IMG/VR virus record: IMGVR_UViG_2541047945_000005
Length of the DNA stretch: 37,681 nucleotides
Reading direction: 5' to 3' (one strand)
Source: a virus
Taxonomy: Duplodnaviria; Heunggongvirae; Uroviricota; Caudoviricetes
Position numbers and translations under genes: made by a program. The notes under the pieces were generated by a model. That model worked only from the letters and a program-made list of their open reading frames with translations, had not been told where the DNA came from and ran no database searches. Each line of letters begins with the position of its first letter. The stretch's first letter is position 1. Positions 26,253 through 37,681 of this stretch are shown here, one piece after another.

Positions 26253-26603
26253 TTAAAGCCCCATCGCAACAGCCAGGCAGACCGCTGCAACAATCAGTGC
26301 ACGGCGGATTAACGCAGCAGAAAACACCAGGTGAAGGCCGGTCTGTACCGGGAAACGCCCTTCAGCCATCAGCCTGTCGTCATGTTTCAGGTACTGACCG
26401 GGACGGGCTTTGGGGAAGAGCGAACGGTCAAGCCAGTAACCCAGCACTGCTGCCAGCGTGATGAGTGCCAGCTTGTAGATCACAACAGGCAGCTGCTGTG
26501 GTGAGACCAGAGCGATGGTGCCCAGCAACAGCACTGAGGTCAGCAGCCAGCCGCTGAGGCGAGGTTTTTTAACAGGGGGAATGAATTTTTTCAGGTTTTT
26601 CAT
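26253..26603 (-). CDS. holin-like membrane protein
   Basis: About 3 TM helices; start taken at ATG 26603 with GAGGAG upstream (ORF track extends to 26651). Confidence 0.5.
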   Translation of the reverse strand: MKNLKKFIPPVKKPRLSGWLLTSVLLLGTIALVSPQQLPVVIYKLALITLAAVLGYWLDRSLFPKARPGQYLKHDDRLMAEGRFPVQTGLHLVFSAALIRRALIVAAVCLAVAMGL

Positions 26604-26651
26604 GTGTGTCTCCTCGTTTGGTGGAGACAGCATCACAAATACAGGGCGCAA

Positions 26652-26675
26652 AGGATTTTAAAGCGCGTTAAGAGA
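26652..26675 (-). promoter_or_regulatory. conserved late-operon motif, copy 3 (candidate lysis/late promoter)
   Basis: aggATTTTAAAGCGCGTTAAGAGa, 49 nt upstream of the holin ATG. Confidence 0.5.
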
Positions 26676-26733
26676 GCCGGGGATACGGGATGTGCAGGAT
26701 AAACGATGAATTATTCACAGAGGAGAATACGAT

Positions 26734-27210
26734 ATGACGCACACACTGAATCCGGTCATCACTGTCACTGTGTCCGGTCCTGTGGGCAGCGGTAAAAGTT
26801 ACGTACTGGCGCGGATAGAAGAGATGGTGAAACAGGAACTCGGAAACAGCGTCATTGTCGATGCTGCTGACGTGGAGAATGAGCGCCGTATGAATGGCGA
26901 AGATCTGACGACCTGGCAGAAGCCACGGGGTGGCACAGTGATCAGGCTAGAGGAATACACGGGACAGGGCCTGTTGTCATACGGCGAGGAGCGTATCTGT
27001 CGGACGAATGAGCTGCTGGATGTTATATGCCCCACGGGCCGGCAACCCTGGATACTGCCCGATGCACTGCATGCCACCATTGCGGCACTGATGACAGTTT
27101 ACGATCAGGAGCTGCTCATGAAGGAGTTACGTAAACTCACCGGTCAGCCAACAGAATGTTGTTCGTCTCCGAAGTACGGCAAACAGGAAAACGCCCCGGA
27201 TAATCCTTAA
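26734..27210 (+). CDS. small P-loop protein, possibly a kinase-like fold
   Basis: Walker A GPVGSGKS at residues 15-22, acidic VIVDAADVE segment after it; GAGGAG 7 nt before ATG. Confidence 0.6.
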   Translation: MTHTLNPVITVTVSGPVGSGKSYVLARIEEMVKQELGNSVIVDAADVENERRMNGEDLTTWQKPRGGTVIRLEEYTGQGLLSYGEERICRTNELLDVICPTGRQPWILPDALHATIAALMTVYDQELLMKELRKLTGQPTECCSSPKYGKQENAPDNP

Positions 27211-27229
27211 GATACCTCCTGAACAGAAA

Positions 27230-27245
27230 CAGCCCTGAAGGGCTG
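27230..27245. terminator. GC-rich hairpin between convergent genes (putative bidirectional terminator)
   Basis: cagccc-tgaa-gggctg; A-run on plus side, T-rich on minus side. Confidence 0.4.
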
Positions 27246-27247
27246 CA

Positions 27248-27829
27248 CTAAAAAAAGAAGTGTATTATTGCCCAAACAGCTATAACGATGATTCCCAGCC
27301 CAAGAGCCGATTCTAACTTATCTTTGGCAGTCATTTTTACTGTTGTAGCGGGCGCAGGTAAGTCTTGCTGCTGTGGATTTTCTGTTAGTTGTTTACGAGA
27401 AGAAACATCGCCCCTATTAGTTTGCTTCATGTTGATTACAGATGCGTTATGGGCATTATCAGCAGCAATTGACTGAAGTTTTACAAAAGTTTTTGAATCT
27501 GTTTTAGCCAGAAGTAACCTATTTCCCGTAAACATTGCCTTAAAAGTGATAGTTTTTTTCGTCTTGTCCGCCGCACCAAGCAAACCTCCAATGACCAACC
27601 CTGCACCACCAAAGATTAATCCACCAAGCAAACCTGCGCCTGCCGCCTTACCTATACGGCTTTCCTCTTCACTATCCGCAAGTTCAATCGATAAAAGCTC
27701 TTCTTTCAGATTTAATACAATATTTTCAGGAAAGCCTTGTTTTGGTTTTTTGGCAAACACGATGGTACCGAACCCCATGCTTGCCCACCCTTTAGGAAAA
27801 CTTCCTGCGATAACCTGAATCCCTGCCAT
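27248..27829 (-). CDS. glycine-zipper membrane protein with C-terminal anchor, unknown function
   Basis: GKAAGAGLLGGLIFGGAGLVIGGLLGAA and C-terminal LGLGIIVIAVWAIIHFFF; AT-rich; start taken at the third ATG (ORF track 27838). Confidence 0.6.
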   Translation of the reverse strand: MAGIQVIAGSFPKGWASMGFGTIVFAKKPKQGFPENIVLNLKEELLSIELADSEEESRIGKAAGAGLLGGLIFGGAGLVIGGLLGAADKTKKTITFKAMFTGNRLLLAKTDSKTFVKLQSIAADNAHNASVINMKQTNRGDVSSRKQLTENPQQQDLPAPATTVKMTAKDKLESALGLGIIVIAVWAIIHFFF

Positions 27830-27919
27830 GTTCATCACCTTTTACATTAAAATTTCAGAACGCAGCATGATGCCGCCTTTGTCTTTTTTCTGATCCCATG
27901 GTAATTCAGCTGTTATTTT

Positions 27920-28906
27920 CTATTTAAGAATAAAACGGTATTTACTGTCAGGAGTGCTTTGCTGATCAAGTAGCAGTGAACGACATGGAGCAGTCAAAAC
28001 CCGAGCATAACTACCATCAGGGCTTATGTTAATGTAACAAACCTTGCCCTTAACACTATAATTTTCGGGGACGGATGCCTTTGCTGATACAGTAAATTTA
28101 AGGGTATGCCAGCCCGTTTTTTGCTTGTAGCTTGAAACCGAATGGAAATCATCTGAGTACTTATTTAACCCTGGAAACATGCTGCGCAGTGCGGGGATGG
28201 AATCTTCTATTATTTTATCGTTGGTTTTAATGTTAAAAACGCTGGTTTCAGTAGAAGCTACTGCTTTGGCATTTCCCCATTTACCAGCGAACACAATCAT
28301 TCCCACGAAAAATATTGCTACAAGAACTAACACTCCCCCCAACACTACTACATGAGGCTTCCGGCTTCTGGTTGGTACAGTTGCGACTGATTTTGCACCG
28401 CTTTCCGATGGAGGTGATAGAGTTTTACTCTCATCACGAATATTCAGCAGATCATCAAAATAACCAAACACAGCCTGCAACTGCTCTTTGTCTAGGCCTT
28501 TAAGATGGGTTGTACCGAAATGCTTCAGACAGTATCTGTCACGGTCAAGACGATACCCAGGGTCAGTAAGCGCCATTATTTTGCTGACCAGAAGATTACA
28601 GTCCTTCATATTCTGGATCTGTTGTGCATATCTCTGAAGGATCTCAACCGCACCATGATAATCAGCCGCAGTCATTTCATTAACTGTTTTGGTATTAAGT
28701 TTCGTGTGGATCGTCATCCATAGCTCGCGCTTACTTTCCCCCAGATCAACCAATTCATCCATCAATCTGTGTAAATCGCGTTTTTGCAGCAACGAAATTG
28801 GTTGCTGGGCCGAAGGAAGTATGTCAGCAGAATAGTTATGAATGGTAACATCACCGCTGACAACGTTACCCACATCCCCGTTAACTGTTTGCTTCTCTTT
28901 ACTCAT
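27920..28906 (-). CDS. single-pass membrane protein translationally coupled to the repressor, unknown function
   Basis: 328 aa; one TM helix at about residues 176-198; ATGA overlap with the repressor stop; AT-rich. Confidence 0.65.
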   Translation of the reverse strand: MSKEKQTVNGDVGNVVSGDVTIHNYSADILPSAQQPISLLQKRDLHRLMDELVDLGESKRELWMTIHTKLNTKTVNEMTAADYHGAVEILQRYAQQIQNMKDCNLLVSKIMALTDPGYRLDRDRYCLKHFGTTHLKGLDKEQLQAVFGYFDDLLNIRDESKTLSPPSESGAKSVATVPTRSRKPHVVVLGGVLVLVAIFFVGMIVFAGKWGNAKAVASTETSVFNIKTNDKIIEDSIPALRSMFPGLNKYSDDFHSVSSYKQKTGWHTLKFTVSAKASVPENYSVKGKVCYINISPDGSYARVLTAPCRSLLLDQQSTPDSKYRFILK

Positions 28907-29364
28907 CTTCTCTTGGTATTTTTGTTCATTATTCCACCTGTTCCTATGGTTACGTTACCTTTGATAACATTCCCCAGAACATCTCCATGAATAACCTGTT
29001 CCGCCCGTTCTCTGGAGGAGCCAGTAGTCAAGGCCGACAAAACTGAACCTTTGACCTGTAATGGTGCCTGCCGGTAGTGCTGCAGTAACTCCATTTCATC
29101 ACGTGATAAAGTTATACCTGATGACTCCCCGGTAAGAATGAACTGTACATTGGCCCCAATTCTTGCAAAGGCTGCAAGTAACTCACCTCCGGGAACAGCA
29201 ACCCCTCGTTCATATTTCCCCCACATTTCTCTTGAAACGCCACAAAGGGCTGCTACTTCAGCCTGCTTGAGTGATAACCGCGAACGCTCAGCTTTGAACC
29301 GCGACGCGCAAAGAGAATCAAAATTCACATAAACCTCATTGACAATGAGAACAATAGTTCTCAT
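28903..29364 (-). CDS. CI-type (XRE-family HTH) prophage repressor
   Basis: HTH LSLKQAEVAALCGVSREMWGKYERG; divergent from the early operon; no LexA-like peptidase motif seen; alternative GTG start at 29328 with GAGG. Confidence 0.7.
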   Translation of the reverse strand: MRTIVLIVNEVYVNFDSLCASRFKAERSRLSLKQAEVAALCGVSREMWGKYERGVAVPGGELLAAFARIGANVQFILTGESSGITLSRDEMELLQHYRQAPLQVKGSVLSALTTGSSRERAEQVIHGDVLGNVIKGNVTIGTGGIMNKNTKRR

Positions 29365-29367
29365 AAT
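29339..29367 (+). promoter_or_regulatory. candidate early promoter (TTGACA-17-CATAAT) for the Cro-like/transposase operon
   Basis: Sigma70-like hexamers with 17-bp spacer about 45 nt upstream of the Cro-like ATG. Confidence 0.55.
29347..29362. promoter_or_regulatory. palindromic candidate operator GAGAACAATAGTTCTC
   Basis: Perfect 6-bp inverted repeat with 4-bp spacer inside the early promoter spacer. Confidence 0.5.
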
Positions 29368-29374
29368 CTATCAC

Positions 29375-29403
29375 ATATAAAACAAACATCATTGCATCAA
29401 CAA
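29375..29403 (-). promoter_or_regulatory. candidate repressor maintenance promoter (TTGTTG-17-TTATAT), near-leaderless
   Basis: Hexamers on the minus strand; predicted start 2-4 nt before the ATG at 29364. Confidence 0.4.
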
Positions 29404-29414
29404 AGGAGACAACA

Positions 29415-29603
29415 ATGACTTCCGAACAAGTTAAAAATCTCTTCCGTCAGCGTGGTATCACGTTTACCCGCTGGGCCGAAGAACACGGCTACAGCCGCAA
29501 TGAGGTCTATCGTGTTCTCAATGGACAGACCAAAGCTCGTTACGGCAAAGCCCATGAAATTGCCGTAAAACTGGGATTAAAACCCACGTCAAATGCGGCA
29601 TAA
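29415..29603 (+). CDS. small DNA-binding regulator (Cro/Ner functional analogue)
   Basis: 62 aa, first gene of the early operon, AAGGAG 6 nt upstream. Confidence 0.6.
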   Translation: MTSEQVKNLFRQRGITFTRWAEEHGYSRNEVYRVLNGQTKARYGKAHEIAVKLGLKPTSNAA

Positions 29604-29655
29604 ATTTTCCACATATGCAACAGGTTATCACATATTGCAAAAATGGAAATGTGAC

Positions 29656-29964
29656 ATGAGTAAAGTAAATATTTCCAGTTCTGGGACCCGCATCCTACGT
29701 GTACTCAAAGCTCTACGCGGTCATGCTCTGAACGGTGTTTCTAACGGTGAACTGGCATCAGCCCTGGGGGAGTCCCCAGCGAATATCAATCGAGCACTTA
29801 ATACCCTTATTGAAGAGGGACTGGCCATGAAATTAGAGAACGGACGTTTCGCACCGGGAATCCAGTTACTACAGATCGCCATGGCTCACAGTCACGAGAT
29901 GGCGCGTGCACAGGATCGTATTAACGAAATCAACCAACGAGTTATTTCAGGTAGTCGTTTGTAA
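29656..29964 (+). CDS. winged-helix DNA-binding protein, unknown role
   Basis: LRVLKALRGHALNGVSNGELASALGESPANINRALNTLIEEGL resembles a wHTH; start taken at an internal ATG. Confidence 0.45.
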   Translation: MSKVNISSSGTRILRVLKALRGHALNGVSNGELASALGESPANINRALNTLIEEGLAMKLENGRFAPGIQLLQIAMAHSHEMARAQDRINEINQRVISGSRL

Positions 29965-29974
29965 GGAGTAATCA

Positions 29975-30889
29975 ATGGGACGCACCAAATCACCCGTTAA
30001 CACTGAACTGAATGTTGAGGTTCCGCTGTCAGATAACATCAATGTCAATTTGAACGCTATGACACAGCATCGCATGGAAATTATGCAGCAGTTTGGTGAT
30101 GGACTGCCTTATGAACGTGATCGCATTGTTCACGAAGCACGTTTTTATATGGCGCAGAGTGCTGAATCTATGCTGGAAGCGGGTAAGCGGCTGATCATCT
30201 TAAAAGAAAATGAGCCACACGGTGATTTTACAAACATTTTAGAAAATGAACTCGGACTTGCACCACAAGTTGCTCGCCGCATGATGCAAGCCAGTATGAA
30301 GTTTTTGGGAGAAGGTGATGAGCCAACAAAACGCTCAACGTTGAGCGTTTTGGGGAAAGCCAAACTGTACGACCTGATGGTTCTGGATAATGAAGAACTT
30401 GATGAATTGGCCGACGGCGGCACAGTTGCCGGCCTGACGCTTGACGACGTTGATCGCATGTCAGTACGTGAATTGCGTCAGGCCCTGCGCGAAGCGCGCG
30501 AAACCAACGCAGCACAACAGCGCGTACTCGCTGACAAAAATGAAAAAATAGACTCACTCTCCACCAGACTGGAGAAGAAATCCCGTATTCAGCCGCCTGA
30601 GCCTGATGAAGAGGTTAAGAAGCTGCGGGCGGAAGTGACAGCATTAGCGGTTGAGGCGGAATCTGCTATCGCCGTTCGACTGTCCAGCGCTTTTGAGACG
30701 CTGTGCGCATATTGTGCTGAAAACATGATTGATACCCCCAGAGACTTCATGGCAGGCCTGGTCTGTCAACTGGAAAGCACAGCGCGTAGCCTGCGCTCCA
30801 CATTTGACCTGCCGGATGAGCCAACAGGCAATGCCGCGCCTTCATGGCTGACTGAGCCGACGCCACAGATTAACGGGCTGGAGGCATAA
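29975..30889 (+). CDS. hypothetical early protein with coiled-coil region
   Basis: 304-aa ORF with AAGGAG RBS immediately upstream of the transposase. Confidence 0.45.
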   Translation: MGRTKSPVNTELNVEVPLSDNINVNLNAMTQHRMEIMQQFGDGLPYERDRIVHEARFYMAQSAESMLEAGKRLIILKENEPHGDFTNILENELGLAPQVARRMMQASMKFLGEGDEPTKRSTLSVLGKAKLYDLMVLDNEELDELADGGTVAGLTLDDVDRMSVRELRQALREARETNAAQQRVLADKNEKIDSLSTRLEKKSRIQPPEPDEEVKKLRAEVTALAVEAESAIAVRLSSAFETLCAYCAENMIDTPRDFMAGLVCQLESTARSLRSTFDLPDEPTGNAAPSWLTEPTPQINGLEA

Positions 30890-36878: not shown

Positions 36879-37320
36879 ACAACGTCTTATCCAGCTCATT
36901 CATATTGCCCGTAATGAACTGGGTATGGATGAAGACACCTACCGCCAGATGTTACAGGGGCTGACCGGTAAAGCCTCAACCAAAGGAATGGATACCACAC
37001 AACTAAACTGCGTGCTGGAATCCATGAAAAGGAAAGGCTTTCGCGTTAAGCCTGCCGGAAAAGCCAGCTCCGGTTTACCGCTGGATAACCATCCGCAGTC
37101 CAGGAAAATCCGTGCGCTATGGCTTGAAATGGCTGCTGCCGGCATTGTTCGTGACCGTTCAGAAAATGCATTAGCGCGGTGGATCAAGCGGGAAACGGGC
37201 ATCAGCGCCCTGCGCTGGCTCAATACTGAACAGGCAAGCAGTGTTATTGAGAAACTGAAGAAGTGGCAGCACAGAGCTGCGGGAGTAAAACATGAGCGAC
37301 CTGAATCAGTTTCGAAGTAA
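36868..37320 (+). CDS. GemA-like protein (Mu gp16-like)
   Basis: Position directly upstream of Mor; AAAGGAG RBS. Confidence 0.5.
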   Translation: MMTKQRLIQLIHIARNELGMDEDTYRQMLQGLTGKASTKGMDTTQLNCVLESMKRKGFRVKPAGKASSGLPLDNHPQSRKIRALWLEMAAAGIVRDRSENALARWIKRETGISALRWLNTEQASSVIEKLKKWQHRAAGVKHERPESVSK

Positions 37321-37681
37321 AGGGCCGGAACTCCTGGTGGAACTGGCACAGCATACCTCTGAGACCGTTCGCGAGATTATTGATATTGAGCCCGCAATTG
37401 CCGACCAGATTGGTCAGGCCGTCGCGAACCGCATGATGCAGGTCTGGGGCGGGCAAAACGTTTATTTCCCGATGGGCATGGTATGGAAGGTCAGTCAGCG
37501 CGACCGGGAAATCTTCAGGGAGTTTAACGGACGTAACCACCATGAACTGGCCCGCAAATTTGGTGTTTCGCTTCAGTGGGTCTACAGCGTGGTTAAGCGG
37601 GTAAGAAAAGAAGAACTGGATCGGATGCAGGGCAAGCTATTTGCTGATGAACCCGATGTAGATACGGAGAAAAAAGAGTAA
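37292..37681 (+). CDS. mor: Mor-like middle-operon transcriptional activator
   Basis: 129 aa (the length of Mu Mor), C-terminal HTH (ELARKFGVSLQWVYSVVKR), last gene of the early block. Confidence 0.65.
   Translation: MSDLNQFRSKGPELLVELAQHTSETVREIIDIEPAIADQIGQAVANRMMQVWGGQNVYFPMGMVWKVSQRDREIFREFNGRNHHELARKFGVSLQWVYSVVKRVRKEELDRMQGKLFADEPDVDTEKKE

Follow-up and report, generated by a model that had tools for sequence, protein, structure and literature searches.

The repressor tail is repeated at the start of the adjacent membrane protein

We analyzed the lysogeny unit of a 37,681-nucleotide stretch of viral DNA (IMG/VR record IMGVR_UViG_2541047945_000005), hereafter called the window, which is a BcepMu-type (Bcepmuvirus-like) transposable prophage of E. 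coli. The unit lies at 27229-29364 on the minus strand and comprises an immunity repressor gene, the genes of two membrane proteins that we call A and B, and a terminator. A first-pass annotation of this region had described a 328-residue single-pass membrane protein starting on an ATGA overlap with the repressor stop codon, and about 90 bp downstream of it a 193-residue protein with a glycine zipper and a C-terminal membrane anchor. Both were found as described, i.e., A starts on the overlap at 28903-28906 and has one hydrophobic segment (residues 181-213), and B follows after a 90-nt spacer. What had been missed is the main feature of the locus: the N terminus of A repeats the C-terminal tail of the repressor. 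The principal features are the following.

28903-29364, minus strand: immunity repressor, 153 residues, with an XRE-type helix-turn-helix (HTH), a short helical segment (EMELLQHYRQAPLQVKGSVLSAL) and a C-terminal tail
28945-28998, minus strand: repressor tail peptide QVIHGDVLGNVIKGNVTI (type 1 motif), detected by BLASTP against the N terminus of A (E = 3e-4)
27920-28906, minus strand: protein A, 328 residues, repressor-coupled bitopic inner-membrane protein (phrog_10002)
28841-28891, minus strand: N-terminal peptide of A, QTVNGDVGNVVSGDVTI, matching the repressor tail
27248-27829, minus strand: protein B, 193 residues, tail-anchored product of an exchangeable cargo gene (ATG at 27829, the same call as in RefSeq)
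27229-27246, minus strand: intrinsic-terminator-like hairpin ending the repressor-A-B unit (7 pairs, then UUUCUGUU; -17.9 kcal/mol, z = -2.6)

The repressor ends in ...AEQVIHGDVLGNVIKGNVTIGTGGIMNKNTKRR and A starts with MSKEKQTVNGDVGNVVSGDVTIHNY. When the two proteins were compared by BLASTP, only tail and N terminus aligned, with 11/21 residues identical. Within the 17 aligned peptide residues, 11 were identical, four of these 11 used the same codon, and nucleotide identity was 65%. The match is thus conserved at the level of the protein and not of the DNA, and a recent DNA duplication as its source was rejected on the same codon and nucleotide counts. A third copy of the motif was not found in the window.

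Both copies of the peptide are conserved more strictly than the proteins that carry them. Pfam matches in the repressor (HTH_31/HTH_3) were limited to residues 22-68, and Pfam found no peptidase or autocleavage domain. Tail-bearing repressors form at least six clusters at 60%-identity linkage with very different HTH parts, and the tail is kept in all of them; likewise, all relatives of the window's repressor keep the type 1 tail although their HTH parts differ. In A, residues 5-25 are the best-conserved part and nearly invariant, with homologues 44-82% identical overall.

Tail and N terminus match in every related locus examined

The tail/N-terminus match was present in every related locus that we examined. 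The type 1 peptide (GDVLGNVIKGNVTI) occurs in BcepMu-like phages of enterobacteria, and the type 2 peptide (NRVAGRDYNE) in P2-like prophages. The latter were reached from a weak tblastn match to the P2-like Escherichia phage 520873, and 520 of 5,426 E. coli genomes carry intact relatives of this phage. In type 2 loci the C repressor ends in ...NISGGNNRIAGRDYNETKGR, and the next gene, 9-18 nt downstream, encodes a tail-anchored Flk_N protein of ~209-216 residues that starts with MAVNSNGSNNRVAGRDFHEKNIQ. A profile search returned 226 such proteins across Enterobacterales.

With the partner proteins as queries, 107 loci were found in IMG/VR, and wherever an upstream open reading frame (ORF) was in range, it was a repressor with the motif type of the partner. 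Among 52 distinct pairs, the mean Smith-Waterman score of cognate tails and N termini was 61 (minimum 41), compared with a mean of 20 for shuffled tails, and all 52 cognate pairs scored above the best of 200 shuffles. Scores between types 1 and 2 averaged 17-22, i.e., background. The reciprocal scan, starting from repressor tails, was equally consistent: each of the 68 pattern-matched loci had an ORF 2-25 nt downstream that starts with the motif. Inspected loci that had escaped the tail pattern carry a GQR(V/I)AGRD variant of the tail and show the same pairing. For type 1, the scans by repressor tail and by protein A arrived at an identical set of 14 contigs.

The peptide is not bound to one kind of membrane partner. 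In the reciprocal scan, 65 partners were Flk_N proteins and three were other membrane proteins that also start with the peptide, i.e., a protein with two transmembrane helices at locus L137 and proteins with a Zn-ribbon and a transmembrane helix at L138 and L153. L137 and L153 also carry a different repressor DNA-binding domain. Tail-less repressors within the same backbone (Citrobacter L012, KP12, PhiKM) have no such partner. These comparisons show a terminal peptide that is portable and lineage-specific, with repressor tail and partner peptide gained and lost together. As a further arrangement, the P2-like locus L152 (2294-3861) contains two tail-bearing repressor copies, a full one of 128 residues and a truncated one of 89 residues, before a single Flk_N partner.

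A third variant of the peptide, VGQA(V/I), is found in Burkholderia phage BcepMu (L193 3227-4422). There gp17 ends in ...EQVFHGSVGQAVKVEGN and the 'membrane protein' gp18, which overlaps gp17 by 4 nt, has ...KQEFNKPVGQAIQAGEAN; the pair scores 36 (p ~0.01 by shuffling). Hence BcepMu resembles the window in overlap and in a peptide common to gp18 and the gp17 tail, and differs in the peptide variant. The order of holin, variable genes, membrane protein, repressor and divergent early operon is also that of BcepMu gp17/gp18 and of KS10 gp13/gp12-11. Further into BcepMu gp18 we noticed the sequence GSVAGRDIVNV, similar to the type 2 peptide found in P2-like phages. In the searchable literature the BcepMu and KS10 genes appear only as 'hypothetical' or 'membrane protein', and the match of tail and N terminus is not described. 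Likewise, no description of the pairing or of a function of B was found there, including searches for the motifs RVAGRD, RIAGRD and GNVVSGDV.

Protein A combines an Flk_N domain with a single membrane helix and a periplasmic domain

Behind its N-terminal peptide, protein A is built of three parts.

28427-28819, minus strand: cytoplasmic helical Flk_N domain, residues ~30-160 (PRK10715 match; PF27202; AlphaFold2 (AF2) confidence score pLDDT > 90)
28277-28351, minus strand: single transmembrane helix, residues ~186-210 (Kyte-Doolittle peak 3.05 over residues 181-213)
27923-28234, minus strand: periplasmic alpha/beta domain, residues ~225-328, with Cys290 and Cys308 (AF2 pLDDT > 90)

Residues 1-29, i.e., the peptide region, were disordered in the AF2 model (pLDDT ~44), in which a linker also separates the helical domain from the transmembrane helix. 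The cytoplasmic domain was assigned to Flk_N from a match of residues 19-147 to the NCBIfam Flk model PRK10715 (E = 2.9e-12, 46.6 bits) and from PF27202 (Flk_N), the Pfam label precomputed for cluster P0001, to which A belongs, and for its relatives. A is not an equivalog of Flk/Fluke (NCBIfam NF007987): its 46.6 bits compare with a cut-off of 353, and only profile positions 14-143 of 339 are covered. Like Flk/Fluke (RflH) of Salmonella and E. coli, A hence has a homologous Flk_N domain that faces the cytoplasm from an inner-membrane anchor. Unlike Flk, the phage proteins carry the matched N-terminal peptide, are prophage-borne and always lie beside a repressor, and type 1 proteins add the periplasmic domain. 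Flk itself is described as a tail-anchored, cytoplasm-facing inhibitor that holds the flagellar export switch (PMC13344023), and by analogy a 'holding' role would fit the Flk_N domain of A.

The C-terminal domain of A exists in other phages as a separate lipoprotein with signal peptide and lipobox. We therefore place this domain in the periplasm and orient A with its N terminus inside and its C terminus outside. Cys290 and Cys308 fall in aligned cysteine columns among A homologues. The stand-alone lipoprotein form adjoins repressors at L017 3986-4519 (KP12 gp283), L009 2295-2828 and L138 3091-4038; it occurs even behind the tail-less repressor of KP12 and together with the Zn-ribbon partner of L138 (315 residues).

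Domain searches and the AF2 model revealed no NTPase or repeat domains in A. A and B each align over their full length with a PHROG family of unknown function, and their close homologues are few and all from Enterobacterales. Our local copy of Pfam, which predates the models PF27202 and PF27000, gave no significant family for either protein.

Protein B occupies an exchangeable slot behind the repressor/partner pair

27566-27655, minus strand: glycine-zipper insert of B, residues ~59-88, IGKAAGAGLLGGLIFGGAGLVIGGLLGAAD (from sequence and alignment)
27251-27319, minus strand: C-terminal membrane anchor of B, residues 171-193 (terminal hydrophobic helix; AF2 helix 168-192)

An alternative GTG start at 27838 would extend B to 196 residues. 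PF27000 (PH_gly_zipper) is precomputed as 'weak' on its close relatives P0026, P0027, P0032, P0033 and P0036, and the elements predicted in B are four strands, glycine zipper, two strands and a helix, followed by a linker and a terminal helix. This order fits a PH-like fold with an insert; the AF2 model, calculated from an 8-sequence alignment, reached a pLDDT of 35.7 only and was unusable. In a library-wide hidden Markov model search, 208 representative clusters were related to B. Most of these consist of the 116-125-residue domain alone, unlike B with its extra linker and C-terminal membrane anchor. G69, G74, G77 and G81 are invariant or nearly so among 62 distant relatives. The family profile of B had no match among PDB sequences, and PADLOC gave no consistent matches for the 62 distant relatives. 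B is best described as unrelated, swappable cargo. It has a tail anchor and a cytoplasmic, probably PH-like domain into which the glycine zipper is inserted, and a protein of this build could plausibly act on the membrane.

Inheritance of B is separate from that of A. A without B was found in Salmonella, Yersinia, Serratia and metagenomic loci. There A again overlaps the repressor gene by 4 nt, except in one metagenomic contig, where 12 nt separate the two, and A is followed by an 89-residue ORF, a 249-residue membrane protein, a Dam methylase gene in the opposite orientation, a 177-residue lipoprotein, or no gene. E. coli WS3294A keeps repressor and A at 93.6% identity, and a 203-residue protein and a DUF2441 protein replace B and the neighboring P-loop gene. 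Conversely, a relative of B with 71% identity stands directly behind a different, 121-residue repressor in Citrobacter-type phages without A. Among the 5,426 complete E. coli genomes, 127 contain A compared with 101 for B.

In P2-like relatives, the position behind repressor and partner is taken by Abi_alpha/PDC-S47 (E = 1e-58), an AAA_15 ATPase like NsnB/AriA (E = 5e-40), BRCT/WYL proteins, DUF2511 and others. Examples of such cargo-slot loci across P2-like and BcepMu-like relatives are L124 4080-5183, L125 3345-4172, L069 3661-4536, L121 3399-4574 and L194 884-2480. By gene content, the slot is a cargo hotspot, and B can be regarded, from its position there only, as a fair candidate for an exclusion or abortive-infection (Abi) protein expressed in the lysogen.

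A matched pairing peptide may couple the repressor to the membrane

The repetition of the repressor tail in the N terminus of A links A to the repressor and not to B, and points to regulation of or by the repressor. We favor, with a probability of roughly 55%, a reading in which A would co-assemble with the repressor through the matched, homotypic pairing peptide and so couple it to the membrane, with B as separate cargo. The peptides of repressor and membrane partner would join by beta-strand zippering, possibly with amyloid-like templating. Repressor activity would then be tied to the membrane or periplasmic state sensed by A, and lysogeny maintained or induced accordingly; A might sequester, stabilize or inactivate the repressor. 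A bolder version, which we consider rather improbable, would make the matched peptides a prion-like templating device, i.e., an amyloid-type, self-propagating switch between lysis and lysogeny that about one in ten E. coli genomes would carry. Here, an envelope or periplasmic cue would cluster the partner, and its N-terminal peptides would nucleate a beta-assembly. This assembly would recruit and convert the repressor tail, strip the repressor from its operators and commit the prophage to induction.

The closest parallels are amyloid-signalling pairs, i.e., fungal HET-S/NWD2, bacterial Bell/NLR pairs with BASS motifs, and Bab/Agp with BASS11. There too, a peptide of ~20 residues is found at the C terminus of the upstream and the N terminus of the downstream product of adjacent genes; it varies between lineages, is matched within the pair, is portable between domains and is disordered in the monomer. 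Bacterial amyloid signalling motifs have been reported to be biased towards G, N, Q, V and I and against K, P and L (10.1101/2020.01.06.895854). The peptides described here share this bias (G+N+Q+V+I 0.57-0.73; K+P+L <= 0.10), and with 17-23 residues they are at the short end for amyloid motifs. Bab/Agp is, like the present pair, encoded in E. coli prophages and has a motif common to adjacent genes, and experiments have shown this pair to work (10.1101/2024.11.07.622273). The carriers differ: an HTH repressor and a tail-anchored or bitopic membrane protein here, an executioner of cell death and a sensor of NLR-like or TPR type there. The output of the repressor/A pair is likely to be lysogeny control rather than cell death.

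For its logic, the pair may also be compared with RpoE-RseA, as well as with BlaI/BlaR1 and ImmR/ImmA. In RpoE-RseA a transcription factor gene is likewise followed by that of a coupled single-pass membrane protein with cytoplasmic N terminus and periplasmic C terminus, and, as in pairs of extracytoplasmic function sigma and anti-sigma factors generally, a DNA-binding regulator is apparently coupled to the state of the envelope. Unlike RpoE-RseA, the present pair shows no relation to that system in sequence or fold and no protease domain, its regulator is a phage immunity repressor, and recognition would use a duplicated peptide and not a dedicated anti-sigma domain.

Such a module would be of interest since many temperate phages, P2-like and Mu/BcepMu-like ones among them, have repressors without a RecA-cleavable domain, and their control is often unclear. 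Here, in two phage backbones that are unrelated to each other, a conserved repressor tail has a second copy at the beginning of a membrane protein whose gene is translationally coupled to that of the repressor, and each lineage has its own peptide 'allele'. The module is common: among the 5,426 complete E. coli genomes, O157:H7 strains included, 520 contain type 2 and 127 the type 1 protein. It offers a testable handle on a possible membrane-linked control of lysogeny, and would extend the principle of terminal motifs shared between adjacent genes from cell-death and immune pairs to transcriptional control. Also, the finding singles out the position directly behind the pair as a hotspot of cargo genes, namely Abi_alpha, AriA/NsnB-like ATPases and uncharacterized genes such as B.

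Several points weigh against the pairing reading. We infer the mechanism wholly from sequence. Amyloid-signalling carriers are lacking: there is no NLR/STAND or TPR sensor and no Bell/HeLo/Bab executioner, in whose place stands an HTH repressor. Moreover, the peptides are shorter than those of amyloid-signalling pairs (~17-22 residues), type 2 is strongly charged, and beta-structure, fibrils and prion behavior are putative. Fold searches were uninformative for both domains of A, the best match being a ~60-residue helical bundle that resembles the Red-beta C-terminal domain. Because most loci belong to two phage lineages, the concordant pairs represent few independent events; we counted ~3 motif types, three non-Flk_N partners and at least six repressor clusters, including two loci with a different N-terminal domain. 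Finally, a third factor that recognizes both proteins would fit the shared peptide equally well. Separately, we considered that the Flk_N domain binds the tail, with the N terminus of A as a pseudo-ligand; this was judged less likely as partners without Flk_N keep the peptide.

Alternative explanations

A third factor could read the peptide as a shared tag, i.e., as a degron or adaptor site for a host or phage factor such as a membrane protease, and the partner would then be a decoy that sets the half-life of the repressor. There are precedents: stability of the Mu repressor is set through its C terminus by ClpXP, and lambda CIII acts as decoy or competitor for FtsH. Since the repressor here has no autocleavage domain, another route of inactivation is needed, and type-specific matching and portability of the peptide onto unrelated membrane partners are explained equally well by a tag. 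A host factor should, however, impose one motif and not three lineage-specific ones within one host species, and types 1 and 2 both occur in E. coli; this diversity counts against a host reader, not against a phage reader. No candidate reader was identified in the window, where the motif also has no third copy, and terminal degrons are usually specific for one end, whereas here one copy is N-terminal and one C-terminal. On balance we regard a shared tag as unlikely, although it is the main rival. It is very doubtful that A is a superinfection-exclusion (Sie) protein acting through its periplasmic domain, with the peptide merely coupling the amount or stability of A to the repressor. Sie and Ltp proteins are encoded in lysogeny modules of Gram-positive phages, and the recurrence of the periplasmic domain as a free lipoprotein behind repressors (tail-less KP12; Zn-ribbon L138) suggests an envelope function of its own; yet most partners (type 2, ~209 residues) are tail-anchored without this domain and still keep peptide and repressor linkage, and no homology to known Sie proteins was found. 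Least probable of all, A could be a prophage copy of the flagellar regulator Flk that alters the flagellar type III secretion switch of the host as lysogenic conversion, e.g., against flagellotropic phages. This would account for the homologous Flk_N domain and for the likeness to a cytoplasm-facing, membrane-anchored inhibitor (PMC13344023), but the homology does not go beyond the domain (46.6 bits against 353), peptide and strict repressor linkage are given no role, and partners without Flk_N hold the same place.

The first-pass annotation had read A and B as two unrecognized proteins in an AT-rich island, expressed with the repressor in the manner of rexAB behind lambda cI, and hence as a candidate exclusion or abortive-infection module. 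Much of the geometry behind this proposal held. As stated there, no terminator precedes the hairpin at 27246-27229 (minus strand), which is the sole terminator-like site within 26500-29700, so that A and B are enclosed by the repressor gene on one side and the only convincing terminator on the other, with no strong terminator in between. The place in the prophage repressor transcription unit, as predicted here, and the membrane location of both proteins are thus like those of rexAB, and in relatives the place behind repressor and partner is held by Abi genes. Neither protein showed structural, lysis or known-defence homology, again in line with the proposal: with PADLOC-DB v2, the only match of A was PDC-M19B (E = 0.014, 12.9 bits) and B had none. 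The region is indeed AT-rich and mosaic, with a GC content of 0.42-0.46 across 27001-29000 against 0.52-0.62 in the flanks. It is no two-gene island, though: low GC (0.42-0.48) spans 27000-30500 and takes in, besides A and B, the genes of the repressor, the ner-like protein and the IclR-type HTH protein together with the first part of the DUF3102 gene. As low GC continues to ~30500, the AT-rich stretch corresponds to the whole immunity/early-regulatory region, and this entire module looks like a mosaic unit. Nor did the proteins stay unrecognized, A carrying Flk_N (PF27202) and B being a probable PH_gly_zipper protein (PF27000). Against a joint module stand the absence of defence-model matches, the co-variation of A with the repressor tail and not with B, and the separate inheritance of both genes, which occur without each other in Salmonella, Yersinia, Serratia and WS3294A (A only) and in Citrobacter (B only). 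A two-component module of A and B is therefore highly improbable; since the two are not co-inherited and A is always directly behind this type of repressor, the likeness to rexAB holds only in part. There is no homology to rexAB; unlike rexAB, A is tied to the repressor protein by the shared peptide, and only B stays a candidate for exclusion or Abi, because it sits in the slot that holds Abi or defence genes in relatives.

Prophage context and boundaries of the unit

Assignment of the window to the Bcepmuvirus-like transposable phages follows from a divergent repressor and early operon (ner-like gene, rve transposase, AAA protein), holin-SLT lysis genes and Mu-type head genes. In an annotated copy, the early operon, divergent from the repressor, reads ner-like gene, IclR-type HTH, DUF3102, rve transposase, AAA protein, Gam and Mor; the strand of the repressor also carries holin, SLT lysin and Mu-type head and tail genes. 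The gene layout is the same as in the Burkholderia phages BcepMu and KS10, and the nearest deposited phage is Escherichia phage PhiKM, classified in Bcepmuvirus. The region is 100% identical to E. coli chromosomes, e.g., CE10 and IAI39.

Within the unit, the spacer between A and B contains a weak hairpin, GGCGGCAUCAUGCUGCG, with a U-rich stretch (27858-27874, minus strand). Compared with shuffled sequences it was not significant (z = -1.2); it could cause partial termination and thereby attenuated read-through into B. Beyond the terminator lies one further gene of note.

26734-27210, plus strand: truncated P-loop gene at the mosaic junction of the block, 158 residues here and 242 residues in PhiKM

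Its product, annotated 'ABC transporter ATPase', matches phrog_3787 over positions 1-157 of 242. Homology ends near residue 153, adjoining the terminator hairpin, and the full-length PhiKM gene is found at L195 2490-3218. The mosaic junction of the repressor-A-B block thus appears to have truncated the P-loop gene. PADLOC returned nothing useful for the P-loop protein or for the repressor.

The prophage copy in CE10 (L001) contains an IS3 insertion and three pseudogenes. The window is without the IS3 of the CE10 copy, and its end (37292-37681) falls exactly on the stop codon of the Mor gene. A sigma-70-like site at 29339-29367 on the plus strand (TTGACA, 17 nt, CATAAT; 11/12 consensus positions) overlaps the 5' end of the repressor gene and is directed at the ner-like gene; it is a likely early promoter.

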